DNA of 64,000 nucleotides, taken from a virus. The stretch's first letter is position 1. Every line of letters begins with the position of its first letter. The stretch is from IMG/VR virus record IMGVR_UViG_3300031918_000005, positions 32,001 through 96,000 of that record; one strand, 5' to 3'. Below, piece after piece: positions 5,461-64,000 of this stretch. The position numbers and the translations under genes were made by a program. The notes under the pieces are model-generated. The model did not search any database and had not been told where the DNA came from. It saw only the letters and a program-made list of their open reading frames with translations.

Positions 5461-6348
5461 TTACTTACCTCTAACTTTTGGATACTCATACACTTTATTT
5501 TTTGATTCAAATATTTTTCTAAGGTTTTTTGTTTCACATTTTGTATGCCCTAAAACATAAGCATATTTGTGTTTACTCCCAACTTTTCTTTTTTCACATG
5601 ATAATTGATATTGCTTTGCCAATGTTCGCACCGTCAATTCAACCCCATCAGGCATTAAATGAAAATTCATTTTATCACCTTTTGACCATAAATCATTCCA
5701 TAATATACCATTAGATTTAGCAATTCTTTTATATACACTTCTACTTCTGAAGTATCTATCAGAAACCCATCTACCATTTTCAAGTTTGAATTGACAAGAT
5801 GTACCTGAATTTTTACCAACATAATAGAAATTACACGCCTGATATATAGTACCAAGTTCTTTTGCTTCTGTATCTGAATAAGCTGTGAATAATCTGAATC
5901 TAGTATTATTAACCATCCAATTTATAGAAAATGATATTAATTTACTAGCCAAATTTTTTGGTGACCATGATATACAAGCACCTCTGCTTATGAGCCTTTC
6001 CAATTTTTTAGTATCTTCACCAAGCATTTTACTAAAAGCATTAGGCATGTCCATTATAACAACACCAGCAAGTATACCATTATATCTAGCAGTGAAAAAA
6101 TGTGTTGGTCGGAAAGACATTCTACCAAGCCATTCATGCTTTTCAATAAACGCTTTTATTTCTTTTATTGAAATCTTTTTCTCCTCAAATTGAAATGTAA
6201 AATCCGATATTTTTAAATCCGATACTTGATATTTTGTTAATCCAGCTTCTTTTAAATCATTTTCATGATTATTAGTCCTTATAACATATTGCCAACAGTT
6301 ATCTTCATTATAAGATAACGAAGATAACCTTTCATTTATATCACTCAT
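5461..6348 (-). CDS. Mom-like adenine modification enzyme (GNAT fold)
   Basis: FIEKHEWLG, ISRGAC, NLASKLIS, TAYSD, GTIYQACNFYYVG motifs. Confidence 0.7.
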   Translation of the reverse strand: MSDINERLSSLSYNEDNCWQYVIRTNNHENDLKEAGLTKYQVSDLKISDFTFQFEEKKISIKEIKAFIEKHEWLGRMSFRPTHFFTARYNGILAGVVIMDMPNAFSKMLGEDTKKLERLISRGACISWSPKNLASKLISFSINWMVNNTRFRLFTAYSDTEAKELGTIYQACNFYYVGKNSGTSCQFKLENGRWVSDRYFRSRSVYKRIAKSNGILWNDLWSKGDKMNFHLMPDGVELTVRTLAKQYQLSCEKRKVGSKHKYAYVLGHTKCETKNLRKIFESKNKVYEYPKVRGK

Positions 6349-7286: not shown

Positions 7287-7298
7287 TAAATAATTAAA
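7287..7298 (+). promoter_or_regulatory. late promoter motif TAAATAATTAAA
   Basis: same motif precedes sheath, gp25, 34329, tape measure and 63929; resembles T4 late TATAAATA. Confidence 0.7.
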
Positions 7299-7316: not shown

Positions 7317-9803
7317 ATGATTGATATAACTCAAAATATAATGATTTTTGAAAGCTTCAAAACACCAATGAAGCGTATCAATGAAGATGTTGAAAATAAG
7401 AAGAACGAATATATTTTTGAAGGTATTTGCGCAGATTTTTCTGATATAAACCGTAATGGTAGAACCTATGACAAAGAAGAATATTTGTCTTTTGTTAATG
7501 GTTCTCTTGCAGACCAAATAGCTCAAATGTCACTTGCTGGAAGTCTTGATCATCCTGAAGATGATGAAGATGAAGATAAGGATATTTTCACTCCAAAAAT
7601 GAAGGAACTTTCTCACGTTATCTTGGCGTTATGGTATGAAGAGGCAACACAACAAGTAAAAATAAAAATAAAATTACTTGATACTCATTTAGGTAAAGAT
7701 GCTAAGGCCTGTGCTGATGCTGGTATGCCTATTTATATTTCTTCAAGAGCTTCAGGTATTATTGACAAAACTGGTCAAGTTCATTTAGACAATATTCATA
7801 CTTATGATATAGTATATAAACCTGGATTTAAACAAGCAAAACTTGTTAGAGTTCTTGAATCCGCTGAAAACAATTCATCTTATGTAAAAATTTTTGAAAA
7901 TACTAGTACTATGACAACTTATTATATAATGTATGATTACAAAAAAGGTAAATATAGTTTTGGAGAAACAAAAGGAAGTTTACCTGAATGGCAAGAATTT
8001 ACAGGAAAAAGTTTTAATGATCAAAATCAAGCATCACTTTATTGTAAAAATGCTGATACATCAACTCCTGATGATTTTACACCAAATCAAGAATTGATTG
8101 ATAAATTTAAATCTCAAAATATCATGGAAAACGTATCAAAGCAAGAATTTGAATCCGCCATTGGTAAAATCAATGAGTCATTGATTTTAATTTCAAAATC
8201 ATTAGGTAGAAAGCCAAATAAATTCGTAATTAACGAATCAAAATTTACTAAAAGACTTAAAAGACTTCGTATCAACGAAGATGAGCAACTTGACAAACAA
8301 GATGTTGTGTCTTTAATCGTTGATGTAACAGATGCTCCTATAGAAGATGTTGCTAAAGCTATTACCGATGAAACAGTTGAGAAAATCAATGCAGTTCTTT
8401 CTGATGAGGATGTGTTTGATAAAGTTGTTGATATAGTTAAAGAAGATATGGATGAACTTGTCGGTGAAGCTGTTGAAAAAACTGAAACTGAAAAAACTGA
8501 TGAAGAATGGAAACAAGAGGCAATTAAATCCCTTGCTAAAACAAGAGGTATTTCTGAAGAAGATGCTACCACGCAAATAACAGATGAATTGATTGAAGCC
8601 TATAAAGAAAGTCAATCAAAATCTGAAAATGAAAATGAAACAGCTGAATCAATCAACGAATCATTAATTAAAAAATTTAACAGAACATTTCGTAAAATTT
8701 ATGAATCTGAAGAAACTCTTGGGGGGATAGTAAATTGGATGCATGAAGCCGATTTGAGAAGATTTAATCAATCACTTAAAAAAGTATGTGATAACGGTGA
8801 AACACTTTATTTTGGTGTACTTGGTGTTGGTGAACTTGAATTAAAGAAAAACACTGAAAGTAATACAATAGATATATCGAAGGAATCAGGTAGTGAAGGT
8901 GGTGAACCTACTTACACATTGGTTGGTTCTATTCCTTGTGACGATGTTATTGCTGTTGGTGAAAGCTTTAAGTCAAAATATATTAAAGAATCTGAAGAAA
9001 TTGGAAACGCTGAAAATTTTGTTGCTACATCTGATGCTCCAGCAGCTGAAAAGGTTTCTATCATTAAAACTTTTAATGATCTTTACGGTGCTGATAATGA
9101 TATTGTTGAAGGTGATGATGAACAAACAGTTGAGGCTTTCTTACAAGAACAAAATCAACTTACAGTTGAAGCAGTTTCTCAAAGAATTGACTTAACAAGC
9201 AAACAATTGTTTGATAAATCAAACCTTATTTCAAAAAGAGTTAATTCTGTTGTTGAATACATGAATGTTGTAGCTACAACCTTTAATGTTGTTAATGACA
9301 AAGTTGAAGCACAAGGAAAACAAATTGAAGCGTTGATACAACAATTACAGTTAGCTCAAACTAGAATCAATTCTGTTACAGAATACTGTAATATAATGGT
9401 TGCTGCTATGAATCAATCAATTGGTACACAAACCGAACAAACAGATACTATCAATGAAGCTAAAAAAGTTATTGAAAAGAGAAAGTCAATCTTTGAAAAT
9501 CTTGATAATAATATAAATAGAATAATTACAAACTCTGCTAATGGAAACGAAAACAAAACAAATAAGAATGGTGTTTTGATAAATGAAGTTCCATCAAAAT
9601 ATAGTAAGATTTTTGAATCTCTCGATGGGAAAATTCAAAATGAAATCAAAGCTTATGTGGTATTCAAAAACCCAAAATCGAATTTAGAACTTGATGCAAT
9701 TTATGAATCTCTAAATTTGGAAAAAGGTTCTAATTCGGCATTAATCTTTGAAAGCACTAATTTTGAATATAGCGATGATTTCATCGCTAATATGTGTGGT
9801 TAA
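7317..9803 (+). CDS. prohead protease (gp21-like) fused to scaffold/core region
   Basis: NRNGRTY, GSLDHP, ISSRASG, YDIVYKPGF motifs; acidic and coiled-coil C-terminal region; directly upstream of MCP. Confidence 0.9.
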   Translation: MIDITQNIMIFESFKTPMKRINEDVENKKNEYIFEGICADFSDINRNGRTYDKEEYLSFVNGSLADQIAQMSLAGSLDHPEDDEDEDKDIFTPKMKELSHVILALWYEEATQQVKIKIKLLDTHLGKDAKACADAGMPIYISSRASGIIDKTGQVHLDNIHTYDIVYKPGFKQAKLVRVLESAENNSSYVKIFENTSTMTTYYIMYDYKKGKYSFGETKGSLPEWQEFTGKSFNDQNQASLYCKNADTSTPDDFTPNQELIDKFKSQNIMENVSKQEFESAIGKINESLILISKSLGRKPNKFVINESKFTKRLKRLRINEDEQLDKQDVVSLIVDVTDAPIEDVAKAITDETVEKINAVLSDEDVFDKVVDIVKEDMDELVGEAVEKTETEKTDEEWKQEAIKSLAKTRGISEEDATTQITDELIEAYKESQSKSENENETAESINESLIKKFNRTFRKIYESEETLGGIVNWMHEADLRRFNQSLKKVCDNGETLYFGVLGVGELELKKNTESNTIDISKESGSEGGEPTYTLVGSIPCDDVIAVGESFKSKYIKESEEIGNAENFVATSDAPAAEKVSIIKTFNDLYGADNDIVEGDDEQTVEAFLQEQNQLTVEAVSQRIDLTSKQLFDKSNLISKRVNSVVEYMNVVATTFNVVNDKVEAQGKQIEALIQQLQLAQTRINSVTEYCNIMVAAMNQSIGTQTEQTDTINEAKKVIEKRKSIFENLDNNINRIITNSANGNENKTNKNGVLINEVPSKYSKIFESLDGKIQNEIKAYVVFKNPKSNLELDAIYESLNLEKGSNSALIFESTNFEYSDDFIANMCG

Positions 9804-9843: not shown

Positions 9844-11460
9844 ATGAATAATAATGTAAAACAAAAAATCTACGAGCGGTGGACACCAAAATTAGAAAAA
9901 CGCTTCGCTGACAAAGGTGTGAAAATCAATGAAAGCAAGTTAAAAACTATCGCTTTAATGGCGCATACTCGTTCAGTGTTTGAAGCTGCTACTACTGCTA
10001 ATACTCCTGGTAAGGGTATGTTCTCTTTTGGTAATAATCCAGCTGATGCAGGTGATGCTTCAAGAGGCAGTGCCGAAATGTTGCAAAAATTATTCGGTGT
10101 ATTTGTTGATGTATCTGCAGCTACTGCTGGTCTTGATTTGTTGACAACTTTGCCGATGACAAAATCATCTATTATGGTGGTGGTTGCTGAACCAGTTTAT
10201 GCTGGTGGTAAAAAAGATTCTATCACTGACCGCTTACCAGTTTTCCAAGTGAAAACTACTGGTACTGCTACTGCTCCTTATACTGCAGGTGCTACTATCG
10301 TTCTTGGTGACTTAACAGTCAAATTTGTTGGTAAACACTACTATAACGGTAATTATATCTTACAATTAGTATCTGTTGCCTCTGCCTCTGCCTCAAAAAC
10401 TGTTGCTGAAATCATTGATGACTTAGCTACTCCAGTTAACGGTTTAACTTATGATGCAACAACTGTTGATTATGTTAACGGTTTCACAAACTTTGTATCA
10501 GGTTTCACTGGTGCTGGTCATGACAATGATACACCACTTTCTACTTCTCGTAATAATGGTAAAACATTAGCAAGCCCATTATCTCGTGAAGTTGGTGAAA
10601 CTGCAAGTGTTAATAATTATTCTGCAAGAATGTGGAATGAAAACTTCTCTGCTGGTACTTACCATGCAACAGTTGATTTCACTATTGAACAAATCCAAGA
10701 TGCTAAAATGGATCATGATTTTGACATGCTTGAATTTGGTGATACCATTTTACAAGATGCTCTTGCTCAATCTTTGAACAACCATATCTTGAGTTATATT
10801 TTTGCTGCAGGATGGCAACATCATGTAAATGTGAATGCAGTAACAGGTAAATCTTTGAACTGTTACATTGCTCCTTCTTCTGAAACTTCAGGTGGATATT
10901 CCTTCGTTAACTTGAAAGAAGAAACTAAAACAATTGCAGGTACTGCAGGTGTTTTACCAGCTACTGGTGCTATTGCTGAAAACTTATCAACTTTACAACG
11001 CAGAATTGTTTCTCGTATGTATTACACAGCAAGTATCGTTAAAAATCGTGGTCGTAATGGCATCGCTAATACTTCTGTTATGAATGGTACAAATGCAACC
11101 GCAATTCGTGATGTAAAAGGTTATACCATTGCTCCAGTTGAAGGAGAAATTCTTGGTGGTGATAACAATCTTGGTTTGATCGGTAATGTTAATGGAATTA
11201 ACATTTATGAGGATGGTTTGATGGATTTGAGCGATGGTCGTATCTCTGTTTTCAAAAAATCATTAGAAGGTAAACCAGGACTTTTCTTCTGCCCTTATAT
11301 TTTAGCTGAAAAGGTTACAGCAGTTGTTGAAGGTTTGATGTCGCAAAAAAGCTTGTTGAAATCTCGTTACAGCATAGCTGTTGCAGGTTCACAACCTGAA
11401 TCGCAATATATGACTTTCGTTGTTGAAACGAATGTTGATGGTGGTTACGACTTAGTATAA
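9844..11460 (+). CDS. major capsid protein (gp23-like)
   Basis: FTIEQIQD, GLFFCPYI, LKSRYSI motifs typical of gp23; follows the protease. Confidence 0.9.
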   Translation: MNNNVKQKIYERWTPKLEKRFADKGVKINESKLKTIALMAHTRSVFEAATTANTPGKGMFSFGNNPADAGDASRGSAEMLQKLFGVFVDVSAATAGLDLLTTLPMTKSSIMVVVAEPVYAGGKKDSITDRLPVFQVKTTGTATAPYTAGATIVLGDLTVKFVGKHYYNGNYILQLVSVASASASKTVAEIIDDLATPVNGLTYDATTVDYVNGFTNFVSGFTGAGHDNDTPLSTSRNNGKTLASPLSREVGETASVNNYSARMWNENFSAGTYHATVDFTIEQIQDAKMDHDFDMLEFGDTILQDALAQSLNNHILSYIFAAGWQHHVNVNAVTGKSLNCYIAPSSETSGGYSFVNLKEETKTIAGTAGVLPATGAIAENLSTLQRRIVSRMYYTASIVKNRGRNGIANTSVMNGTNATAIRDVKGYTIAPVEGEILGGDNNLGLIGNVNGINIYEDGLMDLSDGRISVFKKSLEGKPGLFFCPYILAEKVTAVVEGLMSQKSLLKSRYSIAVAGSQPESQYMTFVVETNVDGGYDLV

Positions 11461-36386: not shown

Positions 36387-36650
36387 TTAAGCTAATTGTT
36401 CCTTATATTTATTTTTTATCTCTTCAAGTGCATTATTGGCTTGGTCGATAATATCTTTAATAGCCTTACCAATTTGTTCTTTAGTATCACCTGAATCTTT
36501 CAAAACTTCATTTTTATCGGATAAAAATTCTTTTCCTATTTCAGTAAAATTTGATTTTACTTCATCAATCATACTTTTGAAATTTCCTTTTATATCAGAA
36601 ATAAATCCTTCATTAGCTGTTTGTGATTCAAATACCTTTAGCTTTTTCAT
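36387..36650 (-). CDS. putative internal head protein (MKKLKVFE leader)
   Basis: shared leader; helical body. Confidence 0.6.
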   Translation of the reverse strand: MKKLKVFESQTANEGFISDIKGNFKSMIDEVKSNFTEIGKEFLSDKNEVLKDSGDTKEQIGKAIKDIIDQANNALEEIKNKYKEQLA

Positions 36651-36972
36651 AATCAAAATATCTAAACCCTTGAAAACCTTTCATGGGTATTGGTTCAACT
36701 TTTGTAAATTCTCCACTCCTGACAACAAATTTACCTCTCCATTTTGTTCCAGTAACGGAACATTCAAAATCTTTTTCCTCAAATCCAACAATGTTCATGT
36801 AGCCAATAACATTATCTTTATAACAAATCCAGCATTTATTACCGATTTGTGATTTCAAAGGCATATTTATAACTTTAAAATTCATGACATTAGAACCATC
36901 TTTTACTAAATCAAGTTCTTTTTGGTATTCTTCCCATTTTGTTTGTTTAGGAAGTGTTACGACTATATCCAT
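36628..36972 (-). CDS. ASCH/PUA-like small protein
   Basis: C-terminal PIPMKGFQGFRYF resembles ASCH-like proteins. Confidence 0.45.
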   Translation of the reverse strand: MDIVVTLPKQTKWEEYQKELDLVKDGSNVMNFKVINMPLKSQIGNKCWICYKDNVIGYMNIVGFEEKDFECSVTGTKWRGKFVVRSGEFTKVEPIPMKGFQGFRYFDYEKAKGI

Positions 36973-37155
36973 TCAATTATGTTTATTTGCTTGATATGCT
37001 TTAAATCCATCTTCTGCATCTTTTTGGGTGTCATAATCTGCATCCCAAAATTTACCAGTTTTATTAGAAATTATACCCCATTTTCCATTAGGTTTTTTCT
37101 TTACCAAATCATTTTCATTAATTGATTGTGATTCAAATGCCTTTAGCTTTTTCAT
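36973..37155 (-). CDS. putative internal head protein (MKKLKAFE leader)
   Basis: shared leader plus SINE; late-type motif at 37163-37174. Confidence 0.6.
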   Translation of the reverse strand: MKKLKAFESQSINENDLVKKKPNGKWGIISNKTGKFWDADYDTQKDAEDGFKAYQANKHN

Positions 37156-37170
37156 GACGCTTTTAGTTTA

Positions 37171-37232
37171 TTTAATATCCAGCGAATGTCAGAATGCAAG
37201 GAATATATATCGTCTGCAGTATGGGGAATATC
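37171..37232 (-). repeat. dispersed repeat, copy 4
   Basis: CCCCATACTGCAGACGATATATATTCCTTGCATTCTGAC...GGATATTAAA. Confidence 0.7.
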
Positions 37233-37235
37233 TTT

Positions 37236-37955
37236 TTAATATACACCTTTATACGATTTTACTTCTTTAATAGTTCTTTCAGCTATTTTAAGTTCTTTTG
37301 GTATTTTTTTAACACCAGTCATATTTTCATAATATTTTAAGTAAACACTACGAATTCCCATTAAATTTGCTGTTTTTATAAATGGTATAGTGAACGTACA
37401 TATTTTCCACCAATCTTCATAACTTATTATTTGTGGTGGTGATGTAAAAGCATCGTATTTATAAGACCTTATACAATATTCAAATCCGCTATCTTCCAAC
37501 ATTTTTTGCATCATTTCCCAATTAATAGGCAATGTTCTTGTTGGTTGGCCACCTTTTTGTATTTGTTCTATTGATGGCTTTATTATGTCCGCATTGAATA
37601 CTCTTATAATTTGGTCAAGAATCATTATTCTAACTTTCGGAGGAACGAAAGTTAAATTAATTCCAAAAGGGTTAAATTCTCCAGATTTTGTAAATTTTTG
37701 GCCTATTATAAGATTTATTGGTCTGAAAGAAAAAGCTGGAACTCTTGCAAGTAATTTTTCTTCAGGAGTTATCGGATTATACCCAAAGGTATAAATTTTT
37801 CCTGGAATTAGAAATATGTCATTTTTCTTTTCAGGTAGTGAATCATTATTACCAGTCAAATAAGAATCGTAGAACCAACGTTGTGAACGGCTTACAATAG
37901 TTGAATATGGTGTTGATTTCATTTCATTTGTCAACTGTGTTGATATGAGTTCCAT
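37236..37955 (-). CDS. DNA end protector (gp2-like)
   Basis: PGKIYTFGY, FGINLTFVPPKVR, YCIRSY. Confidence 0.75.
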   Translation of the reverse strand: MELISTQLTNEMKSTPYSTIVSRSQRWFYDSYLTGNNDSLPEKKNDIFLIPGKIYTFGYNPITPEEKLLARVPAFSFRPINLIIGQKFTKSGEFNPFGINLTFVPPKVRIMILDQIIRVFNADIIKPSIEQIQKGGQPTRTLPINWEMMQKMLEDSGFEYCIRSYKYDAFTSPPQIISYEDWWKICTFTIPFIKTANLMGIRSVYLKYYENMTGVKKIPKELKIAERTIKEVKSYKGVY

Positions 37956-38500
37956 TATGCGACTGTAAATGTTTCATTTTGATTTCTGCTAGAATACCGA
38001 TATTTTGAGAATTTCAATAATTCTATTGAGAAATCCATATCTTTAAATTTCTCAAGATACTTTTTACCAGTATCTTTTTTAAGATATCCTATTGTTATAT
38101 GTGGATTATAATCAGTATATGTAAGTGTTACTGGTAATGTATCGAGTATTGTTTTTCTTAATTTTAATAATTCTTCAGATGGAACAACTGAAATTTTTAA
38201 AACATCATAATTTTCGTTGGTATCAAATATACCAAGTTTACCAAGTTTTAATCTGCCTATATCAGATGGTATAATATTAAAAAACTTCGATAAATGTGTC
38301 AATATGTCAATACCATATACAACAGTTACATGTTGTTCAGTTTCAAGACCATGTTCAGTATTTATATCCGATTTATCTATCTGATTTTGAATTTCTGTTA
38401 TGATTGATATAGGTTTAACATCAATCATAAGACACGCATAATCATAATCAGCTATATTGATTTTACATTTATAGTCTTGCATAATTTTGATAGGTTTCAT
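37955..38500 (-). CDS. 2H phosphoesterase, Acb1/gp57B-like
   Basis: HVTVVYG and YNPHITIGY motifs. Confidence 0.75.
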   Translation of the reverse strand: MKPIKIMQDYKCKINIADYDYACLMIDVKPISIITEIQNQIDKSDINTEHGLETEQHVTVVYGIDILTHLSKFFNIIPSDIGRLKLGKLGIFDTNENYDVLKISVVPSEELLKLRKTILDTLPVTLTYTDYNPHITIGYLKKDTGKKYLEKFKDMDFSIELLKFSKYRYSSRNQNETFTVA

Positions 38501-38529
38501 TACAAAGGTTTCATTATTTACCTATATTA

Positions 38530-38567
38530 AAATCCCACAAAGGCTTAAACAGCAATTGTGGGATTTT
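38530..38567 (-). terminator. intrinsic terminator
   Basis: AAAATCCCACAA...TTGTGGGATTTT. Confidence 0.75.
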
Positions 38568-38571
38568 GTTT

Positions 38572-38660
38572 GTTCTTTCGATGTGACATTTAGCGGTTAA
38601 TCATTTTTAATCGCAAGTCGGAAGCAACCTCTTGGCGTGGTGAGGGTATAAATCGAAGAA
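38572..38660. ncRNA. candidate structured RNA
   Basis: GC-enriched intergenic segment with closing stem GTTCTTTCGAT/ATCGAAGAAC and two internal stems. Confidence 0.4.
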
Positions 38661-38719
38661 CTTCGATCGTATTGTAACATTACAAAATTTTATTATCATA
38701 ATAATAAAATAGTTTCATA

Positions 38720-39259
38720 TTATTTTATTGGGTCGGGTGTATCAGAATACTCACTAAATGGTTTATGTTGTTTTATATCATCATAAAGCCAATATTTGAA
38801 ATCTTCTATAGAAATTGGAGTTATACATTTAAAACCTTTCCAATTTTTATCATAATTCTCAAGATATGCCTTTTTAGCATCTTCATGTGAATCATATCCA
38901 AGCATAACCTTAGATTCATCAAATTTTTTGGTTTTTGGATTTATTTGATCAATAACATAAACTTCTTCGCATTCCAAATTTTCACCAACAAACACATCAA
39001 TATGGTCGTCATCTTTACCTTTTGTGTTTCCGAAATATCCATAATGAGATTTCATTGTTGTTTCCCATTTATTACCATCTTCATCAATTCCTGAACGAGT
39101 TGAATCTTTTGGATTTTCAATAGAAATATTCATACCTTGAATTTTAATCTTAGCTTTTTTATAATTACCTGATTTTATTTGTTCTTCAGTAGGATTTGTT
39201 TCTGTTTGTTCGTTTATATCTTTATCAAGATGAGATTCGAATATTTTTAATGGCTTCAT
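38720..39259 (-). CDS. stand-alone inorganic-pyrophosphatase-like domain of polyvalent proteins, with MKPLKIFE leader
   Basis: PTEEQIKSGNYKK, ISIENPK..RSG, HYGY, DHIDVF, FDESKVMLGY. Confidence 0.75.
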   Translation of the reverse strand: MKPLKIFESHLDKDINEQTETNPTEEQIKSGNYKKAKIKIQGMNISIENPKDSTRSGIDEDGNKWETTMKSHYGYFGNTKGKDDDHIDVFVGENLECEEVYVIDQINPKTKKFDESKVMLGYDSHEDAKKAYLENYDKNWKGFKCITPISIEDFKYWLYDDIKQHKPFSEYSDTPDPIK

Positions 39260-39263
39260 AGAT

Positions 39264-39617
39264 TTAATTATTACCTTCAATTGCACCAGTTTCTATCAAT
39301 CTTTTAAACGCATACATTGTCATTGTATTACCCGAAACACCATTACAATTTTTTTCAAGACCAGAATCATGATCGCTTATTCTGATTTTAATTGTTGTTT
39401 TACCATTATTAACAAACATATCTGCATAGGTTTTACCCTCGTTAAGTACATTAACAGTTAGCGTTATATATTGTGATAAACCATTTGTTAATGATGTTTG
39501 TATTTTTATGTTGGAAAACCCCATGTCATTAAATATCTTGGTTATTTCATTTTCATGATCAAAATCAGGGTTATATTCTTGCTTTTCAAAGTTTTCAAAT
39601 ATCTTTAGCTTCTTCAT
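39264..39617 (-). CDS. putative internal head protein (MKKLKIFE leader)
   Basis: shared leader; S.Y...KIRISDH. Confidence 0.6.
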   Translation of the reverse strand: MKKLKIFENFEKQEYNPDFDHENEITKIFNDMGFSNIKIQTSLTNGLSQYITLTVNVLNEGKTYADMFVNNGKTTIKIRISDHDSGLEKNCNGVSGNTMTMYAFKRLIETGAIEGNN

Positions 39618-39638
39618 AAGATATTATATTTTAATACA

Positions 39639-39674
39639 TTTGTGATATCCAAATCCACATTTGGATATCACAAA
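39639..39674. terminator. hairpin, probable terminator
   Basis: TTTGTGATATCCAAAT...ATTTGGATATCACAAA. Confidence 0.7.
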
Positions 39675-39690
39675 TCGGTATATGTTTTTA

Positions 39691-40068
39691 TTATATAACA
39701 AATCCAAGAGTTCTTAACGATGCAATAACAGATGTAAGTTTTTCAGAATCTGTCGTACCTTCTATTGTTGGTTTGTTTGCAGGTGTTATATTACCATCTT
39801 TATCAATAGACGCTTTAATTGATGTACCATCAGGAGAAACCACAAGAACATTTCCAGTTGCTCCAGTAAGTATAATATTATCAGCGATGATTGATTTGTT
39901 TGGTAATGTACCAGTAAGACCAGATAGATTTATGGTTTTCGTTGTCGTATTTAATACATTCAATACTGGATTTAGAGCGTTTTCAATATCCTCAAATGCT
40001 TGATTGATAATCGCAGGTATATCAGATACCTGATTTGTTGATAATAATCTTGTTAATTCTAGTGCCAT
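39691..40068 (-). CDS. small virion/fibre-like protein
   Basis: Thr/Gly-rich; late-type motif at 40075-40086. Confidence 0.5.
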   Translation of the reverse strand: MALELTRLLSTNQVSDIPAIINQAFEDIENALNPVLNVLNTTTKTINLSGLTGTLPNKSIIADNIILTGATGNVLVVSPDGTSIKASIDKDGNITPANKPTIEGTTDSEKLTSVIASLRTLGFVI

Positions 40069-40135
40069 AATATTTTTGATTATTTATTATTAAAATATTT
40101 AGAAATTCATTTCAAGAATAAAAGGTTTATTAAAA

Positions 40136-40729
40136 TCATTCTGTTTCTTCAGTAGCTGTTTCTGATTTCAAATCTTCAGGTTTTTGTTCAATAGGGAAAT
40201 ATTTTTTCTTTTCACCATCTTCAACAATCAAAAGTAAATTTTTATCTGATAGGTTTTTGGTGTAAAGTTTAATTTCTTGTTCTGTGAATTGATATTCAAC
40301 AAGTTCTTCAGCAGTTATTTCAGAGCAATTATTTTTATAATGTATGTTATAAAGCTGAACAAATGTACTAAATCTATATTTTTGAATACTTTCAATATAA
40401 GATTGTCTTACACCATTTGCATAAGATTTAACTTTTTCAATTGATTCTTCAAATGATGTTCCACTCATGTATTCTTTGTAAGCATATTCTGCATGGCATA
40501 TAATTTTGCCTTGATTATTTTTAAACAATGGTAAGCCATTGGTGATAATTCTACACCATTCTTTCGGTGAAAAAGATTTTTCAACTTCTTTTTCCTCTTT
40601 AGTACCAGCATTGATTTTTTCTTTCCAAGAGATTTTACAATGTTTTTTAGATTTCGAAGTCCAATTTTTCTTTTCTAAATTTTCTTTTCGGATATCCTCT
40701 CTTATTTCTCTATCTTGTGTTGATTCCAT
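40136..40729 (-). CDS. hypothetical protein
   Basis: 197-aa ORF. Confidence 0.65.
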   Translation of the reverse strand: MESTQDREIREDIRKENLEKKNWTSKSKKHCKISWKEKINAGTKEEKEVEKSFSPKEWCRIITNGLPLFKNNQGKIICHAEYAYKEYMSGTSFEESIEKVKSYANGVRQSYIESIQKYRFSTFVQLYNIHYKNNCSEITAEELVEYQFTEQEIKLYTKNLSDKNLLLIVEDGEKKKYFPIEQKPEDLKSETATEETE

Positions 40730-40961
40730 GTTTTATTTTTTTAATTAAACAACAATTTTTATATTTTTTTCCTGAATTGCAAGGACATTTATCATTCCTT
40801 AATGGTTCTTTTGGTTTTATAATTGGTTTGGGTATTTTATTTTCAGCTTTCGGAGCACATATAGGACAATACCATTTTTTAAATTTCTTCAAATATTTTA
40901 TAGCTGGAGCACCACATATACAACATGATTCATCACATTTCGGGTTTTGATTTTTCTTCAT
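40710..40961 (-). CDS. SEC-C motif Zn-binding protein
   Basis: RNDKCPCNSGKKYKNCC plus CxxC pairs. Confidence 0.75.
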   Translation of the reverse strand: MKKNQNPKCDESCCICGAPAIKYLKKFKKWYCPICAPKAENKIPKPIIKPKEPLRNDKCPCNSGKKYKNCCLIKKIKHGINTR

Positions 40962-41698
40962 TAAGAATTTAACGAATGTTTTAAGAATTCTGTTTTGTCA
41001 CCAAGAAAGAATGTATAATTTATTCTTGCAATCCAGTAATCTATTTTATTGATATTTTCAAATATTTTTTTTGTGTCAATGAAATTATTATATGGTTGTT
41101 GTTTTAATGTAAATGTTCTTAATTTATTTTCATATGGATTGAATATTTCACATACTGGAGCAGTACTGATTTCTTTTATTAGGTCTAATTTTTCTGAAGC
41201 AAGTTTTTTCCACATCTTATGCATGTCACAATGATTTATATTTTTCATCTTTATGCAATCAAGAAGAAGATTTTTCTCATCTATATCGATAAAATATTCA
41301 ACCATAGCATTGTTTTGGTTTTGCTTGGTTTTGTAAAATGAATCATTCATCATTTTACGAACACTTTCTATAGATAATAAATTCAAATACTGAACAACAT
41401 GAACATTTTTAACAATTATCGGCATCATGTCATGTACTTCTTCGAAAATGGTTGTTCCATCTTCTGTTATAATAAGTGTTTTATATTTTAGGATTAAAGA
41501 CACTGTTATTTCATTTATTCTATATTTCATTCCTTCAATCTGAACGAAATCTGAAAAAATAAAATGTTCTGCTTGTGGGTACTTTATACCTAATCTTTTA
41601 ATTATTATATCTTTGTTTGGAAACTCATAGTTTGCTACATACACTTCATTTTCTGTAAGTAGCTTATTAAGTTGGAAGATATCTTGGCACATAAGCAT
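40961..41698 (-). CDS. hypothetical protein
   Basis: 245-aa ORF; TAAATAATTAAA at 41704-41715. Confidence 0.65.
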   Translation of the reverse strand: MLMCQDIFQLNKLLTENEVYVANYEFPNKDIIIKRLGIKYPQAEHFIFSDFVQIEGMKYRINEITVSLILKYKTLIITEDGTTIFEEVHDMMPIIVKNVHVVQYLNLLSIESVRKMMNDSFYKTKQNQNNAMVEYFIDIDEKNLLLDCIKMKNINHCDMHKMWKKLASEKLDLIKEISTAPVCEIFNPYENKLRTFTLKQQPYNNFIDTKKIFENINKIDYWIARINYTFFLGDKTEFLKHSLNS

Positions 41699-41745
41699 TG
41701 TGTTTTAATTATTTATATATGAAATAATAATTAATGTGTCAATTC

Positions 41746-41913
41746 AAAAACGGAGTTGCCGACAATCCTGAAACTGTCGGCAACCGATGGCTAGTTACAT
41801 ATATAGCCTACCACCTTAAAGAACTTCCGAATTACTTTTTACTTTTCATAAGGAAGTAGTGTATAATAACTCTCGGCTTAAAGCCGATATTCGGGGAAGA
41901 GCATAGAACCATC
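41746..41913 (-). ncRNA. candidate multi-hairpin small RNA ending in a terminator
   Basis: several stems in an ORF-free ~300-bp gap; terminal GTTGCCGACA/TGTCGGCAAC hairpin followed by T tract. Confidence 0.45.
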
Positions 41914-42002
41914 TTAACAAATTCAATGATTATCATTACACTAAGCAGATTATTTTTATAAAAATAATCTCTACATTTTATTATTGGTTTGTTATTATGG
42001 TG

Positions 42003-42476
42003 TCAACTCAAATTATAAAGCTTCATTATTCTGTCTTCATACCATTTTCCAGCAGTAGGATTATGTAGTCTTATGGCTTTGTGAATATCCTTAGTTGGAT
42101 TTCTATGGCTTTGAAGTATATTAAACATTTCTATACATTTTTTTCTATCATATCTATCAGACAATTTATATCTTTCAGGGTTTTTGTACAATCGGTTTAT
42201 TCTGTTTACTTCTTTTATGTATATTGGTGTTATTTGCATACACCCAACACAACCACCATAATTGATAGCACTGTCGTTATTGGCTGATTCAACCATTATT
42301 ATTGATTCTATCAATTTCTTCCAATTTTTCTCGGAAGAAGTTGATTTTTCTGATGATTTAAAAATAAGCTTGGGTTTGATGATAATTTTATAAGATTCAT
42401 GATATTTCAAAAACACAAAAGGAACTGCTGTAATTATTATGCAAAAAACAATAAGTTTAATTTTTTCATTTTTCAT
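42003..42476 (-). CDS. SLT-family lytic transglycosylase with N-terminal membrane anchor
   Basis: IIMVES..N..A, GCMQIT, HNP. Confidence 0.8.
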   Translation of the reverse strand: MKNEKIKLIVFCIIITAVPFVFLKYHESYKIIIKPKLIFKSSEKSTSSEKNWKKLIESIIMVESANNDSAINYGGCVGCMQITPIYIKEVNRINRLYKNPERYKLSDRYDRKKCIEMFNILQSHRNPTKDIHKAIRLHNPTAGKWYEDRIMKLYNLS

Positions 42477-42498
42477 TTTAAAAATTTTAGTTAGACAT

Positions 42499-42536
42499 AT
42501 CTTGTGGGCTGTGTTGACTTACACAGCCCACAAGAT
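42499..42536. terminator. hairpin, probable terminator
   Basis: ATCTTGTGGGCTGTG...CACAGCCCACAAGAT. Confidence 0.75.
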
Positions 42537-42556
42537 TTAATAATCTCTTTTTTGAC

Positions 42557-43732
42557 TTATTTTAGACCAGTCGATAATTTTCCTTTTATTGCTTCTTGAG
42601 GATTATAGCCTTCAAGAGCGAATGAATCTACTTCTATATTATTTATAAATTCCGATATAGTCATATTTTCATTTCTGAATTGTTCAATATCGTTGTGGAA
42701 CTTATCTTTGAATAGAAGTTTAGGTAATTTTGTTGGTGTACGTTTCAATTGCTCATCGGTTTGTTCATCGTGGTTTTCGTAAATGTGAACATCGCCAAAA
42801 GTATGAACAAGTTCACCCGAAATCATATTACACATTTGAGCTACGATTTCAATCAGCAACGAATAACTGGTTAAATTGTACGGAACGCCCAAGAATGAAT
42901 CTGCAGAACGTTGATAAAGTTGGCAATCAAGATAATATTGAGGAGTTCTTTTACTCAAAGCTTCTTCAGTGATTGCCAAATTTTCCATTTCAATATCTCT
43001 GTTTTTCATCACCCATTGGACTTTTTCACCCATAGTTAATGGTCTGCAGTTAAACTGGAACATGGCATGACACCAATAAAGTGCTAAATTTGTGTCATGT
43101 GCAGGGTCAATTGCTGTAACAATATGTCTTCTAGATTCAGGATTTTTAATTAGACCTTCTATAAGATTTTTTATTTGGTCAATATTATTAAAATATATAG
43201 CATTACCATTGTTACCAATAAAATTTTCCCAATCACGCCATACTTTACCATATTGGTGACCACAATCACCAAGTATATAATTTTTGTATTTCGGCAAATC
43301 TTCTTTTGGTGTTTTTTTCATCATATCACAAAATTCCTCAAATTGGAGCATTGAATATCCATCAGCTTCAAAAATGGGGTGAGCGTTCCTTACTCCCATT
43401 TTTGATGATATAGGAAGTAAAATGGAGTTCACTTCTTCGTTGTTTACACAAGCTATTTTACAATAATAATTGTATGCATCTTCATTCCATATATTCAAAC
43501 CGTTTTCGATAAGATATTTGATATTTGTATCACCTCTCAAGAACCACAAAAGTTCAATAACAATGTTTTTGAAAGAAACTTTCTTTGTTGTTAAAATTGG
43601 GAATCCATCGGCTAAATTGTGTCGGAATTGATAACCAAACAAACTGGTAGACGATGGCATATTAGCTCTTGCAGCTGGTTTGTAACATCCATAATTTTTA
43701 ATTCTCGTAAGTAAATCCAAATATTGTTTCAT
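42557..43732 (-). CDS. thyA: thymidylate synthase
   Basis: FPILTTKK, ELLWFLRG, SRRH, WCH, YQRSAD, GVPYN, GDVHIYENH. Confidence 0.95.
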   Translation of the reverse strand: MKQYLDLLTRIKNYGCYKPAARANMPSSTSLFGYQFRHNLADGFPILTTKKVSFKNIVIELLWFLRGDTNIKYLIENGLNIWNEDAYNYYCKIACVNNEEVNSILLPISSKMGVRNAHPIFEADGYSMLQFEEFCDMMKKTPKEDLPKYKNYILGDCGHQYGKVWRDWENFIGNNGNAIYFNNIDQIKNLIEGLIKNPESRRHIVTAIDPAHDTNLALYWCHAMFQFNCRPLTMGEKVQWVMKNRDIEMENLAITEEALSKRTPQYYLDCQLYQRSADSFLGVPYNLTSYSLLIEIVAQMCNMISGELVHTFGDVHIYENHDEQTDEQLKRTPTKLPKLLFKDKFHNDIEQFRNENMTISEFINNIEVDSFALEGYNPQEAIKGKLSTGLK

Positions 43733-43748
43733 GTTGATGTGGAATTTA

Positions 43749-44657
43749 TTATAAAATTTTTTCGTTGATTAATATTATTTTTACTTTTTCAATAAGTTCT
43801 TCTATAGTACCATCATTATCAATAATATAATCAAACTTATCATAATCATCTAAATCAGTTTCAGATACATGTTCATTTGGTTTAATTAACCAATTTTTAT
43901 CAACATAAGATTTTAAAGGATATTCTCCTGTATCTTTATATACAACTTTATATAACTCTGATAAAGTAAATATACCATCACAATAACTATATAAATTTTT
44001 ATTACGATTAACTCTAATATTGATTCCACCTTTAGCTTTAACAGATTCTACTTCATTAAGAAATCTAACATCGGTAATAATCCAATTTGGAAAATTGTTA
44101 ACATAATATGTATCTTGACCTATTGGTCTTTGTATAGGATTATTTTTATATTTTGAAAAAAGCGATATAATCCATAAATTAGGATGTATTATGTTTCTAC
44201 CAGCTTCAGTACCAAGAAGTTGAAGTAATTTACGAGGTGTAAGAATTTCAGATTCTATATTAAGAACATTTATGATTTCATGTTTTTTGATATATTTTTC
44301 AACTTCTTGTTTAGTCGAAAAAATTCCTTCATTTAGTTGACAATTGCCTTCAAATAAATTGTGGTCATTATCAGGTATTAATTTCCAAATTGTCCAATCT
44401 TCACCAAGTTCAGTATTTTTAAAATCTTCATCTTCAAGTTGATCTCTTGTACAATTTATTAAAATACATATCATATATTTAAGAGCATCAGCAAATTTAT
44501 GTATTTCCCAACTAGAATGATTAATACGGTTTATATCATTTTTTATGAGTTGTACAAATTCTTCTTCTGAATGTATTTTAATAGTAAGTAAATATTGTAT
44601 AATAGTACCAACTAAATCTTTACCGCTTTGTTTTTTACCGCTTACACCTATTATCAT
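43749..44657 (-). CDS. deoxynucleoside monophosphate kinase (gp1-like)
   Basis: IIGVSGKKQSGKD, FADALK, TPRKLLQLLGTE, ITDVRFLNE, HVSE. Confidence 0.9.
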   Translation of the reverse strand: MIIGVSGKKQSGKDLVGTIIQYLLTIKIHSEEEFVQLIKNDINRINHSSWEIHKFADALKYMICILINCTRDQLEDEDFKNTELGEDWTIWKLIPDNDHNLFEGNCQLNEGIFSTKQEVEKYIKKHEIINVLNIESEILTPRKLLQLLGTEAGRNIIHPNLWIISLFSKYKNNPIQRPIGQDTYYVNNFPNWIITDVRFLNEVESVKAKGGINIRVNRNKNLYSYCDGIFTLSELYKVVYKDTGEYPLKSYVDKNWLIKPNEHVSETDLDDYDKFDYIIDNDGTIEELIEKVKIILINEKIL

Positions 44658-52206: not shown

Positions 52207-52554
52207 ATGAAAAAATTAAAAAACTTTATTGAAAACAACTCCAAAATTTTGTTAACTGTTTTTTGTTTTGTCATACTTTATCAGACATGTTCTGAAAAAA
52301 GAGCAATTAACAAGCTCAAAACAGAAGTAACATCATTGTCGGATAAAACCGATAAACAATTAACCCAAGATGAATATTTACTGATTCAAAAGATAGAAAC
52401 CTACAAATTTCTGTCGGAAAATCTTTATGTTAATAATGCCATTGTTAGGACTGTTATCAGACCCGATGACAAAATTAACGAGTATACTCAAGAAATCAAC
52501 AAACTTGAAAAGCAACTCAATGTTATTCGTGAAAATAAAAAATCCAACAAGTAA
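52207..52554 (+). CDS. membrane-anchored coiled-coil protein (spanin-like?)
   Basis: N-terminal hydrophobic segment, then coiled coil. Confidence 0.45.
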   Translation: MKKLKNFIENNSKILLTVFCFVILYQTCSEKRAINKLKTEVTSLSDKTDKQLTQDEYLLIQKIETYKFLSENLYVNNAIVRTVIRPDDKINEYTQEINKLEKQLNVIRENKKSNK

Positions 52555-56519: not shown

Positions 56520-56768
56520 TTAAAGATTCCGAGTTAAGTCAGTTTCATATGCTGATAAATTATTATCTTCAAAAGAATATATATAAACTGGAAATTCAAG
56601 TTTATTACCAAAAACATCTTTTGTTTCGATATGAAAATTACTAACAATTAAAGGAGTTTTATTATCAAGCCCACTTAATTTTGGCATATAATACACTTTT
56701 TCACCAACCTTATATTTAGGATCTGTGTTATTATTTTCAAACCCCTCGAATACTTTTAATTTTTTCAT
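56520..56768 (-). CDS. putative internal head protein (MKKLKVFE leader), SH3-like
   Basis: shared leader; PKYKVGEKVY. Confidence 0.6.
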   Translation of the reverse strand: MKKLKVFEGFENNNTDPKYKVGEKVYYMPKLSGLDNKTPLIVSNFHIETKDVFGNKLEFPVYIYSFEDNNLSAYETDLTRNL

Positions 56769-56778
56769 AAATACAAAA

Positions 56779-56822
56779 TTTAATCTTTAATTATTTAATC
56801 TTTAATTATTTAATCTTTAATT
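56779..56822. repeat. 15-bp tandem repeat x3
   Basis: TTTAATCTTTAATTA x3 (last copy 14 bp); forms two late-promoter boxes on the minus strand. Confidence 0.9.
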
Positions 56823-57386: not shown

Positions 57387-58604
57387 TCACCAAAGAGAGT
57401 TGAATGTTATTAATGATGAAGGTATCTCTTTTAGACCTATGGCAACAAGTATTCTATTGATATACGACAGATAATTTGACATAAATTGTATATCATATGA
57501 TACTGGATATTTTTGTAAAAACTGTGGTGGTATAACTCCAATAGGGAATGCAAAAACATCAATTATGGGGCTTGTTGTATAATACCATTGTATTTTATCA
57601 CCAGATTTTATTATAGAATATTTTTGTTTTATTTCATCAGGTGCAAGCGATATTTCGTTATTGTATTGAGCAATCGCTCTGATGTGAATAGGAGAACCAG
57701 CAACGTATTTTATATTATTATCAGAGCATTCAAGTATATATTTACCAAGATTATTAACTCTTTGAGTACTTAATATATTAATTATATCTATATGTGTGAA
57801 TTCTTCTTTTATGTTCCTGATTTTATCAACAATAATATTATAATCTATAATATCTGTCTTAATTATACAGTCAATTATAATTTCCTTAAGTTTTTCACGA
57901 ATAAATTTAGGTACAGATGTTTGATTCATTTCAAGACCAATAGCCTTTACATTTTCATATCTTCCAAATGTTGTTCCATTTTCCCAAATAAGTTCCTTAA
58001 CATATCTTTTTTTAGATGATATCAAGAATTTACCTATAATTTGTTCAAATGTTAATTTAAGGCACGGCATACCCGATATTCTTTTTTGGAATCCACCATG
58101 TAAACTTATGAAATGAGACAACATATGCTCAAGTGCTGGATATAAGTCGATTTTGTTTAATTTCAGGACAAAATCTTCAATAGTACCTTTATAATCAGTA
58201 TGGCTAATTATCTTACCATAATTTACAAACACCGAATCAGTATCACCATAAATTACAATATCTTCAGTTATTGGAGTAACATATGTTATACCAAGTTGTT
58301 CATGAATATGTGGTATATTAGGAAATCTTTCCTTGAAATATTTATTAAACCAAAATTTGGTGTACTTTATAACGTATGCCGATTGAGTAGATATAGAAGA
58401 AGCTACATATTTGTCATAAAGTATAAATGAAGAAAACCCAAATACGCCATATATAGAATTGAGGATTTTCTTTAAAGATAAATCCTCGCTCTTTTTTGAA
58501 AATTGTAAATTTTGAAGTCTAGTTATTTCATCATTGATTTCTTGTTCAGTTACTTCTTGACCTTTTTCAAACTTACAGTATTTTAAATCCAAATCATATA
58601 TCAT
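57387..58604 (-). CDS. family B DNA polymerase, C-terminal subunit (split gp43)
   Basis: KKILNSIYG, YGDTDS, KKRY present; no exonuclease or DxxSLYPS motif. Confidence 0.85.
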   Translation of the reverse strand: MIYDLDLKYCKFEKGQEVTEQEINDEITRLQNLQFSKKSEDLSLKKILNSIYGVFGFSSFILYDKYVASSISTQSAYVIKYTKFWFNKYFKERFPNIPHIHEQLGITYVTPITEDIVIYGDTDSVFVNYGKIISHTDYKGTIEDFVLKLNKIDLYPALEHMLSHFISLHGGFQKRISGMPCLKLTFEQIIGKFLISSKKRYVKELIWENGTTFGRYENVKAIGLEMNQTSVPKFIREKLKEIIIDCIIKTDIIDYNIIVDKIRNIKEEFTHIDIINILSTQRVNNLGKYILECSDNNIKYVAGSPIHIRAIAQYNNEISLAPDEIKQKYSIIKSGDKIQWYYTTSPIIDVFAFPIGVIPPQFLQKYPVSYDIQFMSNYLSYINRILVAIGLKEIPSSLITFNSLW

Positions 58605-58605
58605 A

Positions 58606-59184
58606 TCAATTAAACCAATTAAGTTCAGTTTTTCCTTTATACCCTTTTTCCATTACAATCCACATATACGCAATAGCCGATGAATTTTTGTCAATTATTC
58701 CTCCTTTACATCCATGTATTCTACTTGTTGAAACCAATATAGTTTTAGGTGGATTATTATCAAAAAATTTTCTTCTTTCTTTTCCTTCTAAAAATGCTAA
58801 TCTTAAGAAAAATGCAACTTTATAGCCTTCTTCCAATATATCATAAGCATGTCTTAGAAATTTCAATGCCTCTTTGTATGGAGGGTTTGTTATTATATTA
58901 CCACTAAATTTTTGTGTACAATCTAAAAAATTTACTCCCGATTTACAAAACCCTCTATCATACAAATCATAACTTACGACATTGTATCCTTTTTCAATCA
59001 ATATTTTTGATATATGTCCTTCCCCAGCACATGGTTCAAGTACAGGAATTTGTATATCAAAAAATTCATTTTGTAAAAGTCCATTTGTAGCAATTGGATT
59101 TGTAGCATAGAAATCATCTTTCTCTCTTTCCGTAAGTGAATGATTGCTACATCCATTCATAACAAAAACATTGACTTTATCCAT
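58606..59184 (-). CDS. DNA N6-adenine methyltransferase
   Basis: DFYAT, LEPCAGEGHI, ITNPPY. Confidence 0.8.
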   Translation of the reverse strand: MDKVNVFVMNGCSNHSLTEREKDDFYATNPIATNGLLQNEFFDIQIPVLEPCAGEGHISKILIEKGYNVVSYDLYDRGFCKSGVNFLDCTQKFSGNIITNPPYKEALKFLRHAYDILEEGYKVAFFLRLAFLEGKERRKFFDNNPPKTILVSTSRIHGCKGGIIDKNSSAIAYMWIVMEKGYKGKTELNWFN

Positions 59185-63215: not shown

Positions 63216-63929
63216 TTATTTTTTGCTTCTTTTTGCTTTTTTGCTTTCAAAAATAGCTTTACGATAACGTTTTTTGATTGATTCATTAATTTTTTCTTTG
63301 ATTCCATCTTTACAAGCTTCATCAATATTTTCTTGTGAGTCAACGATTGTATCAACAGCAGTTTCGATTACATCTTCAACAACATCCGCAGGAACTTCGG
63401 CTTCAACCAAAGTATCAACGAGTTCTCCAACTGAAATTTCTCCACCTTCTAATTCACTTGCAGCAGCGATTATTTGGTCTTTAACTTCATCGGTTATGGA
63501 TTCAGTATCGGTAAGAATTTGCTCAATATCACCAGCTTCAATTGCTTTATCGTCAACTATCTCATCGGCTTGTTCTTCTGTGATTTCTGTGATAGGAGTA
63601 TCTGATGCTGGAACTTCTTTTTCAACAACTTCATTTGATAAAAGAACTTCAGGGTCATATTGTTGACCATCTTCAGAAACAAAATAACCATAATCAGAAA
63701 CAAAAGTTCCTTGATTATTTTCAAAAGTTCCTTGTTCATCTTTGTATGTAAGAACAGAGCCAGCTGGTAAAACAACTCCACCATCAATTTCCAAATCTTC
63801 TTTTGTTGTATAAGTATCACCTTCAACAAGTTCTACTCCATATTTTTCAGACACAAAATTTTCAAAACACGGAACTCGACCAGTACCTATTTTTGATTTA
63901 AAACTTTCATTGATTTTATAAGTTTTCAT
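63216..63929 (-). CDS. acidic prohead core/internal protein (MKTYKINE leader)
   Basis: very acidic; INES/IFES motifs; late motif at 63965-63976; upstream of portal. Confidence 0.6.
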   Translation of the reverse strand: MKTYKINESFKSKIGTGRVPCFENFVSEKYGVELVEGDTYTTKEDLEIDGGVVLPAGSVLTYKDEQGTFENNQGTFVSDYGYFVSEDGQQYDPEVLLSNEVVEKEVPASDTPITEITEEQADEIVDDKAIEAGDIEQILTDTESITDEVKDQIIAAASELEGGEISVGELVDTLVEAEVPADVVEDVIETAVDTIVDSQENIDEACKDGIKEKINESIKKRYRKAIFESKKAKRSKK

Positions 63930-64000
63930 AAGTAATAATTTTTTAAATGATTTTTTAAATGATTTTTAATTATTTAGTGGAATTAGTATTTTTAATTGGA

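Follow-up and report, generated by a model that had tools for sequence, protein, structure and literature searches.

The window examined here, a 64,000-nucleotide (nt) stretch of the IMG/VR virus record IMGVR_UViG_3300031918_000005, contains a cluster of small minus-strand genes between positions 36,387 and 39,617, and four of the encoded proteins open with variants of one short N-terminal leader, MKKLKxFE. A preliminary description of this DNA had quoted six such N-termini, and we found all six on the minus strand, with start codons at 36650, 37155, 39259, 39617, 56768, and 63929 (Table 1). The source record is a 167,485-bp phage genome with 28.6% G+C that is estimated to be complete, and the window comprises its bases 32001 to 96000; positions below refer to the window unless marked as genome positions. 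The phage is uncultured and T4-like, and its host is probably a member of the Flavobacteria or a Flavobacterium-like bacterium. Judged by the major capsid protein (MCP), the nearest cultured phage is Flavobacterium phage MaF61 (37% identical), and Sphingomonas phage PAU, the Prevotella Lak phages, and Tenacibaculum phages are more distant. For comparison within the uncultured clade we used G001 (86% MCP identity, a 90-kb fragment), G003 (67%, a complete relative of 150 kb), and G004 (51%, 150 kb), the present phage being G000. The portal and tail sheath genes were assigned through phrog_213 and phrog_34521, respectively. A megablast search of the leader-gene cluster against cultured phages gave no match.

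Table 1. Leader genes, head genes, and adjoining features in the window
Feature	Position	Strand	Evidence and remarks
Prohead protease fused to scaffold, 828 amino acids (aa)	7317..9803	+	phrog_207 head maturation protease, 2.2e-27; late box at 7287-7297
Major capsid protein, gp23 family	9844..11460	+	PF07068, 44.5 bits; two N-terminal protease-type sites
Leader protein, 87 aa, MKKLKVFES	36387..36650	-	body an acidic, helical orphan
Gene without leader inside the cluster, 114 aa	36628..36972	-	weak DUF1489 match
Leader protein, 60 aa, MKKLKAFES	36973..37155	-	second site-like SINEN at residue 12; one-mismatch late box upstream
gp2-like DNA end protector, no leader	37236..37955	-	phrog_429, 4.3e-14, residues 19-189
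2H phosphoesterase (Acb1-like or 2'-5' RNA ligase-like), no leader	37955..38500	-	PF13563, 36.1 bits; PF23474 Acb1, 28.0 bits
InPase, stand-alone, 179 aa, MKPLKIFES	38720..39259	-	PF18823, 1.4e-54; second site-like DINEQ at residue 15
Leader protein, 117 aa, MKKLKIFEN	39264..39617	-	folded body
Perfect 17-bp hairpin, 4-nt loop	39638..39675		on the minus strand, separating the 125-aa gene from the 117-aa leader gene; no trailing T tract
Leader protein, 82 aa, MKKLKVFEG	56520..56768	-	ortholog P0018
Two exact late-type boxes (TAAATAATTAA)	56787..56812	-	upstream of the gene for the 82-aa leader protein, by 19 and 34 nt
Acidic protein, 237 aa, MKTYKINES	63216..63929	-	two further sites near the C terminus; upstream of the portal gene
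Exact late box	63966-63976	-	before the 237-aa leader gene

A scan of the whole genome for proteins beginning MK[KPT][LFY]K[IVAL][FN]E, a check that the preliminary description had proposed, added six members to the quoted six. The resulting 12 genes are scattered over six loci and encode proteins of 60 to 237 residues; those outside the window start at genome positions 30807, 31037, 31276, 96703, 138437, and 142659. The leaders vary around a core MKKLK[IV]FE, with MKPLK.., MKKFK.., and MKTYKINE as the departures from it. For the InPase gene and the genes at genome positions 96703, 138437, and 31276, the longest open reading frame (ORF) opens 4 to 14 codons 5' of the leader methionine, and their starts were placed by analogy with the other members. 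The leader set is the sole N-terminal cluster with more than two members in the genome. It grouped 11 sequences, compared with a maximum of 3 in 300 column-preserving shuffles that kept the composition at each position, and chance is thus no explanation for the leader. The bodies behind it are unrelated, as had been claimed from inspection: the best pairwise match had an E value of 0.004 in a database of the 12 sequences.

In every leader, the last three residues are [IVLA]-[FN]-E, and S, N, G, or T comes next. The proposal that this ending recurs in the head genes held up well. We counted 14 instances of the strict motif [IVL][FNY]E[SNGTAD] in the 828-aa protease-scaffold protein, against a proteome-wide rate of about 0.2 per 100 aa, and two sites lie near the N terminus of the MCP, KINES (residue 28) and SVFEA (residue 45). 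These MCP sites are kept, in the forms [IV]-[NS]-E and [IV]-[FY]-E-[AS], throughout the five genomes of the clade, and two sites at the N terminus of the protease itself are likewise conserved in the five. Serine follows the glutamate, at P1', in 14 of 40 sites of motif-bearing head proteins and in about 12 of 190 elsewhere. Comparable sequences are found in the T4 record (NC_000866), where gp22, gp23, and gp68 hold IFES, LFES, IFEN, and INEN, where gp67 and gp68 have a protease site inside their first six residues, and where two genes at the ipII/ipIII position begin MKTYQEFIAE. With the looser motif [IVL][FNY]E, we counted 15 occurrences in the protease-scaffold and 21 in a 1118-aa protein.

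That 1118-aa protein lies outside the window (genome 156346-159702, plus strand) and has 21 [IV][NF]E sites, approximately one per 50 residues; its sole profile match is phrog_15551, a family of unknown function. Possible identities for this protein are a second scaffold and a large internal protein of the head that is processed into small fragments. Across lineages, covariation of leader residues P2 and P3 with the scaffold motif was only suggestive and was not used as evidence.

The N-terminal part of the 828-aa protein matched T4 gp21 by BLASTP (24% identity over 180 aa, E value 7e-5). Its LDHP aligns with LNHP of gp21 at the HP pair and its ISSR with VSSR at the SSR triplet, and the remainder of the protein is scaffold-like. 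A search of the protease domain against PDB sequences gave nothing at an E value of 1 or below. By its sequence, then, the phage encodes a gp21-type (S77) prohead protease, and the 828-aa protein is presumed to be the enzyme that removes the leader.

Comparison with the related genomes indicated how the leader behaves relative to the proteins that carry it. In orthologues that are 63 to 76% identical, all eight leader residues are kept and the residues just after them diverge; the sole ortholog found for the 82-aa protein (P0018, 63% identical) follows this pattern. The 87-aa protein has an ortholog in G001 with a different propeptide, still ending in VNES. For the 178-aa protein encoded at genome position 142659, which is basic (pI 9.6) and is the sole tagged protein conserved out to MaF61, we aligned seven sequences. 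The glutamate before the body is invariant among them and is preceded by I/V-F/N, and the propeptide varies in length and sequence: in G004, MKKLKIFE is joined straight to the body; in G003, an unrelated basic peptide ending in AINE takes its place; and in closer relatives, the leader is followed by a variable 12-residue spacer and a second site. Likewise, the G003 ortholog of the 237-aa protein reads RVNEN|FKSK where the present phage has KINES|FKSK, behind a longer and repeat-rich propeptide. Other G003 genes (e.g., 28330, 28862, 132898, and 142018) encode basic propeptides ending in [IV]NE[SA], such as MKKSNTTRINES and MKQNSPINEA, and some of the bodies behind them look paralogous, with a common D..NG..DW motif.

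The tagged genes themselves turn over between conserved flanks. From the 697-aa gene to the next conserved gene, the present phage has three tagged genes and G001 has a single, unrelated 165-aa tagged gene; beside a conserved 685/913-aa gene, the genes bearing a propeptide number four in G001 and two in the present phage, with one in common. The body of the 117-aa protein also occurs untagged. Six homologues (P0005 to P0010) begin MKTT/FEKQ, exactly where the body starts after MKKLKIFEN, and one of these leaderless homologues is encoded on Logan contig SRR30518536_528 (gene 5751-6089), directly after the DUF3799, DEAD-helicase, and Prim-Pol genes of an element unrelated to this phage. An AlphaFold2 (AF2) model of the 117-aa protein reached a pLDDT of 82.7, with residues 1 to 9 below 50 and thus disordered; searches of this model against the PDB gave no fold match (Foldseek, nothing at an E value of 0.001 or below; VIA-align wide, best Z score 3.7). 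The corresponding model of the 178-aa protein (pLDDT 52.6) was too poor for a fold search. The unrelated bodies, the exchange of tagged genes between conserved flanks, and the presence of one body untagged elsewhere together argue that the leader is a module, separable from the protein that it precedes.

The TAAATA boxes that the preliminary description had noted upstream of several of these genes are real and take a sharper form, TAAATAA[TA][TA]AA, all 26 genomic copies of which lie within 60 nt upstream of a gene on the same strand. The box, which is similar to the T4 late promoter TATAAATA, stands at the head of the protease-scaffold/MCP unit and of the sheath gene, and it directly precedes two leader genes, that at 56768 with two copies and that at 63929 with one. 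Under a crude operon model, every one of the 12 leader genes belongs to a unit that has the box or its 7-mer core at its head, compared with 105 of 188 other genes (Fisher p = 0.0013), and none is among the 41 genes of units headed by the sigma54-like sequence TGGCACGATTTTTGT. This one promoter box suggests late expression of the leader genes, alongside that of the head genes.

Only one tagged protein has a clear predicted function. The InPase scored 184 bits against a cut-off of 26.8, with residues 25 to 158 spanning positions 1 to 134 of the 135-position profile, and its DDDHID stretch resembles the metal-binding signature of type I pyrophosphatases. Families of PHROG in which this domain recurs bear the names virion structural protein, minor head protein, and DarB-like antirestriction, and hundreds of phage proteins that contain it have tail, portal, or DarB-like annotations. 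From such context, Iyer et al. (2017; PMC5512222) predicted that the InPase domain is packaged in the virion and injected. One tagged protein encoded outside the window carries DUF5661, and the other tagged bodies are orphans; for the 87-aa protein, a search of 1.8 billion representatives returned no real homologues, only weak coiled-coil-like matches with E values of 3e-5 or above.

Taken together, we think it probable, with room for doubt, that the leader is a T4-type capsid-targeting propeptide that is removed by the prohead protease. The tagged proteins would be made late, and the leader would bring them into the scaffold core of the prohead. The protease, fused to its scaffold, would then cut after Glu8, with I, V, L, or A at P3, F or N at P2, E at P1, and S, N, or G at P1', and several members would probably be cut a second time a few residues downstream. 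The small propeptide would exit the head, and the mature bodies would remain inside until their ejection along with the DNA. The acidic 237-aa and 233-aa members (the latter encoded at genome position 96703) are more likely to be degraded as core proteins than injected. The earlier picture of a modular leader that loads proteins into the head fits every sequence-level test that we ran; targeting and packaging, cleavage after Glu8, retention, and injection are the steps that it infers. Injection and a role in counter-defense are plausible.

The capsid-targeting sequence (CTS) of T4 internal proteins was reportedly described by Mullaney and Black in 1996. The CTS on IPI, IPII, IPIII, and Alt has been reviewed (PMC9026906, PMC5694885, PMC3012670). 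The first 10 residues of IPIII are enough to bring about incorporation into the head, and among these, residues 4 and 7 are important for targeting and residues 8 and 10 (P3 and P1) for processing (PMC9026906). The leader has the same format, being a short N-terminal peptide on unrelated proteins whose first residues are MK and whose last is Glu, P3 being hydrophobic in line with the gp21-type consensus. A gp21-type protease is likewise predicted here, the tagged genes are nonconserved and lie in variable loci, and one member begins MKTY (cf. T4 MKTYQEFIAE). The two systems differ in that the leader here has 8 residues (MKKLKxFE) and the T4 sequences 10 to 19, that the protease is fused to the scaffold, that 12 tagged genes are spread over 6 loci, that the bodies are mostly acidic rather than basic, and that the host is probably Flavobacterium-like and not an enterobacterium; the system described here is known from sequence alone. 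Apart from that one MKTY start, the MK start and the terminal Glu are all that the leaders have in common with MKTYQEFIAE, and we regard the likeness as one of function and format, not as demonstrable homology. Many head-internal proteins of the giant phages phiKZ, 201phi2-1, and SPN3US are also processed after Glu by a gp21-related protease, with redundant propeptide sites and, in some paralogues, identical N termini (PMC5694885, PMC7411985, PMC10052503). Their propeptides are mostly 80 to 130 residues long with an S/A/G-x-E motif, in contrast to the 8 residues with I or V at P3 seen here.

Several observations weigh against this interpretation. MKKLK alone is not specific, in that a membrane protein encoded at 52207-52554 begins MKKLKNFIEN; this 115-aa plus-strand product was considered as a 13th member and was set aside as a membrane or secreted protein on account of the hydrophobic segment after its start. 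One leader has Ala at P3, and the InPase orthologue of G001 begins MKKLQIFKP, lacking both a Glu at position 8 and a canonical site in the vicinity. The Pfam S77 score of the 828-aa protein, 20 to 23 bits, is under the gathering cut-off of 27. Lateness was deduced from one promoter box, and PHROG and Pfam annotation of the genes heading late-box units was mostly uninformative; most of these genes are unannotated, and one is a homing endonuclease. No MKxxKxFE leader was found in the complete relative G003 or in cultured MaF61, and a relaxed DNA pattern for MKxxKxFE gave 0 matches in 1.68 Mb from five related large phages (Lak-A2, PTm1, PAU, pT24, and LR756500). The latter result doubles as a chance control, and as MaF61 and these five phages all have zero starts, no published virion proteome is applicable to the leader. 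Lastly, 10 of the 12 mature bodies are acidic (pI 4.1 to 5.4), unlike the basic internal proteins of T4, and some may be core components that are expelled.

This acidity also supports the strongest competing explanation, in which the tagged proteins are accessories of the prohead core or scaffold, comparable to T4 gp67 and gp68, that are cut and leave before or during packaging so that nothing is delivered. T4 gp67 and gp68 are themselves very acidic, are encoded beside the portal gene, and combine an early protease site with internal ones. The 237-aa and 233-aa members resemble them in being acidic, in being encoded upstream of the portal gene, and in carrying sites that are internal or C-terminal; a second site is also present in several small members. 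These two proteins are larger than gp67 and gp68 and have no detectable sequence similarity to them; on the features listed, they are more likely to be core proteins of this type than effectors. For the leader proteins as a whole, however, an essential core should be conserved, and the small tagged genes are swapped for unrelated ones at 86% MCP identity. Moreover, one member is an InPase enzyme, from a family tied to injected polyvalent proteins, and one body occurs untagged in the replication module of another element. We consider the core-protein explanation for the whole set unlikely, while giving it more credit than those that follow.

A second alternative, which we judge to be distinctly improbable, is that the leader is a protease-removable pro-sequence only, for example one that keeps proteins inactive or soluble, and that the bodies direct their own incorporation. 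Consistent with this, conservation across the wider clade is limited to the [IVL]-x-E site, and the remaining propeptide sequence varies. A bare cleavage site, however, needs none of residues 2 to 5 (KKLK), which in each genome are conserved as strongly as the site itself across unrelated bodies and among orthologues, and in T4 the targeting information of the CTS sits in its N-terminal part (PMC9026906).

The leader might also act as nucleic acid, whether as an enhancer of initiation, a site for a translational regulator, or a recombination cassette, with the peptide being incidental. A-rich codons right after the ATG are typical of efficient initiation regions, and there is shuffling of tagged genes from genome to genome. 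In comparisons of the eight MKKLK leaders, however, codon differences were synonymous in 73 cases and nonsynonymous in 17, and third positions accounted for 66 of the 101 differing nucleotides. The Ser and Leu codons include families that differ at the first position, with both AGY and TCN used for Ser9. The DNA upstream of the leader is not conserved either: identity among the eight was 77% within the leader and 38% in the 30 nt preceding it. Furthermore, highly expressed late genes (those for the MCP, sheath, and portal) have no leader. This pattern points to selection acting on the leader at the peptide level and speaks against an RNA-level element or a recently copied cassette, leaving the nucleic-acid explanation very improbable. 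The least credible alternative, a secretion or membrane signal, can draw on MKKLK being a common start of Bacteroidota signal peptides, as in the protein at 52207-52554, but none of the 12 members has a hydrophobic stretch after the leader, where the next residues are polar or acidic.

Returning to the capsid-targeting interpretation, we surveyed IMG/VR with a degenerate DNA pattern for MKK[LF]KxFE. Among the 118 matches listed, 55 were true ORF starts. Of the records with such starts, G006, G010, and G011 carry a gp23-type MCP, and G006 and G010 also encode S77 protease-scaffold fusions; in G011, no S77 match was found. G011 (465 kb) has at least 22 MKxxKxFE starts, mostly of the form MK[YH]LK[LIKRT]FE, compared with 10 in G012 (a fragment in which no MCP was found) and 5 in G006, including MKRIKLFEQFIAE; the reversed-pattern control for these counts gave 0. 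The tagged genes of G011 lie partly in tandem arrays (e.g., 39448-43623, 412566-413898, and 434672-435506). It is possible, although we hold this only tentatively, that uncultured large phages, several of which have a gp23-type MCP, make wide use of MKx[LI]KxFE as a capsid address code. Were this so, whole injected proteomes would be readable from sequence, and phages could make new prepackaged effectors by adding an 8-residue module to genes that other elements express from their own genomes, as the 117-aa body suggests.

For the present phage, a targeting role would make the virion cargo of an uncultured phage listable from its sequence, with 12 proteins of which about 10 would be candidates for ejection. 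The swapping of tagged genes at fixed loci and the untagged body elsewhere form the pattern expected for fast-evolving host-takeover or counter-defense proteins, and the tagged orphans provide a short list of candidates for testing in these roles. The InPase belongs to the same family (PF18823) as the domain in polyvalent proteins (PMC5512222) and differs in standing alone, as a 179-aa protein behind a CTS-like leader, rather than as a multidomain module or a portal/MuF fusion. If it is indeed targeted, it would join T4 capsid targeting with the predicted injection of polyvalent InPase-type domains.

The preliminary description had gone further, presenting the tagged set as a prepackaged counter-defense kit and the leader as a potentially portable delivery tag. 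Of the kit, the InPase domain stands, and a counter-defense role is plausible for this protein and for no other tagged one; what else was offered consists of the untagged gp2-like and Acb1-like neighbors, and most of the tagged bodies are acidic orphans. As for the delivery tag, its modularity is borne out, and its novelty in principle is not, as the T4 CTS has been used in this way since 1996 (PMC9026906, PMC5694885). The understanding of head assembly is likewise unchanged, the principle having been known for decades for T-even phages. We consider the most useful new points to be the stand-alone tagged InPase, the modularity of the leader together with the turnover of its loci, and the recurrence of MKx[LI]KxFE in large phages.

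The two untagged enzyme genes within the cluster had been described as gp2 and an Acb1-like enzyme. The first assignment is upheld by the PHROG match; a Pfam profile search with this protein gave no match, and its G001 ortholog is 77% identical. The second is less secure. Two HxT motifs (HVT and HIT) place the product in the 2H superfamily, but its Acb1 score is marginal against the cut-off of 27, and the PF13563 (2_5_RNA_ligase2) profile scores higher. The start of this enzyme, MKPIKIMQD, was considered as a decayed leader and rejected: the G001 ortholog begins MQPLQMIQDYKC, and the N terminus is part of the conserved body.

Among the remaining features of the window, the hairpin at 39638..39675 could be a terminator, an RNA-stability element, or an operator. 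Two adjoining minus-strand ORFs at 57387-59184 may be split or interrupted genes: the 405-aa product of the first (57387-58604) aligns only to the C-terminal half of phage DNA polymerase profiles (positions 485 to 840 of 856), and the 192-aa product of the second (58606-59184) aligns only to the middle of a DNA methyltransferase profile. Thymidylate synthase (391 aa; 42557-43732, minus strand) and deoxynucleoside monophosphate kinase (302 aa; 43749-44657, minus strand) far exceed the profile regions to which they align, of 278 and 177 positions, respectively, and their excess length suggests large insertions.

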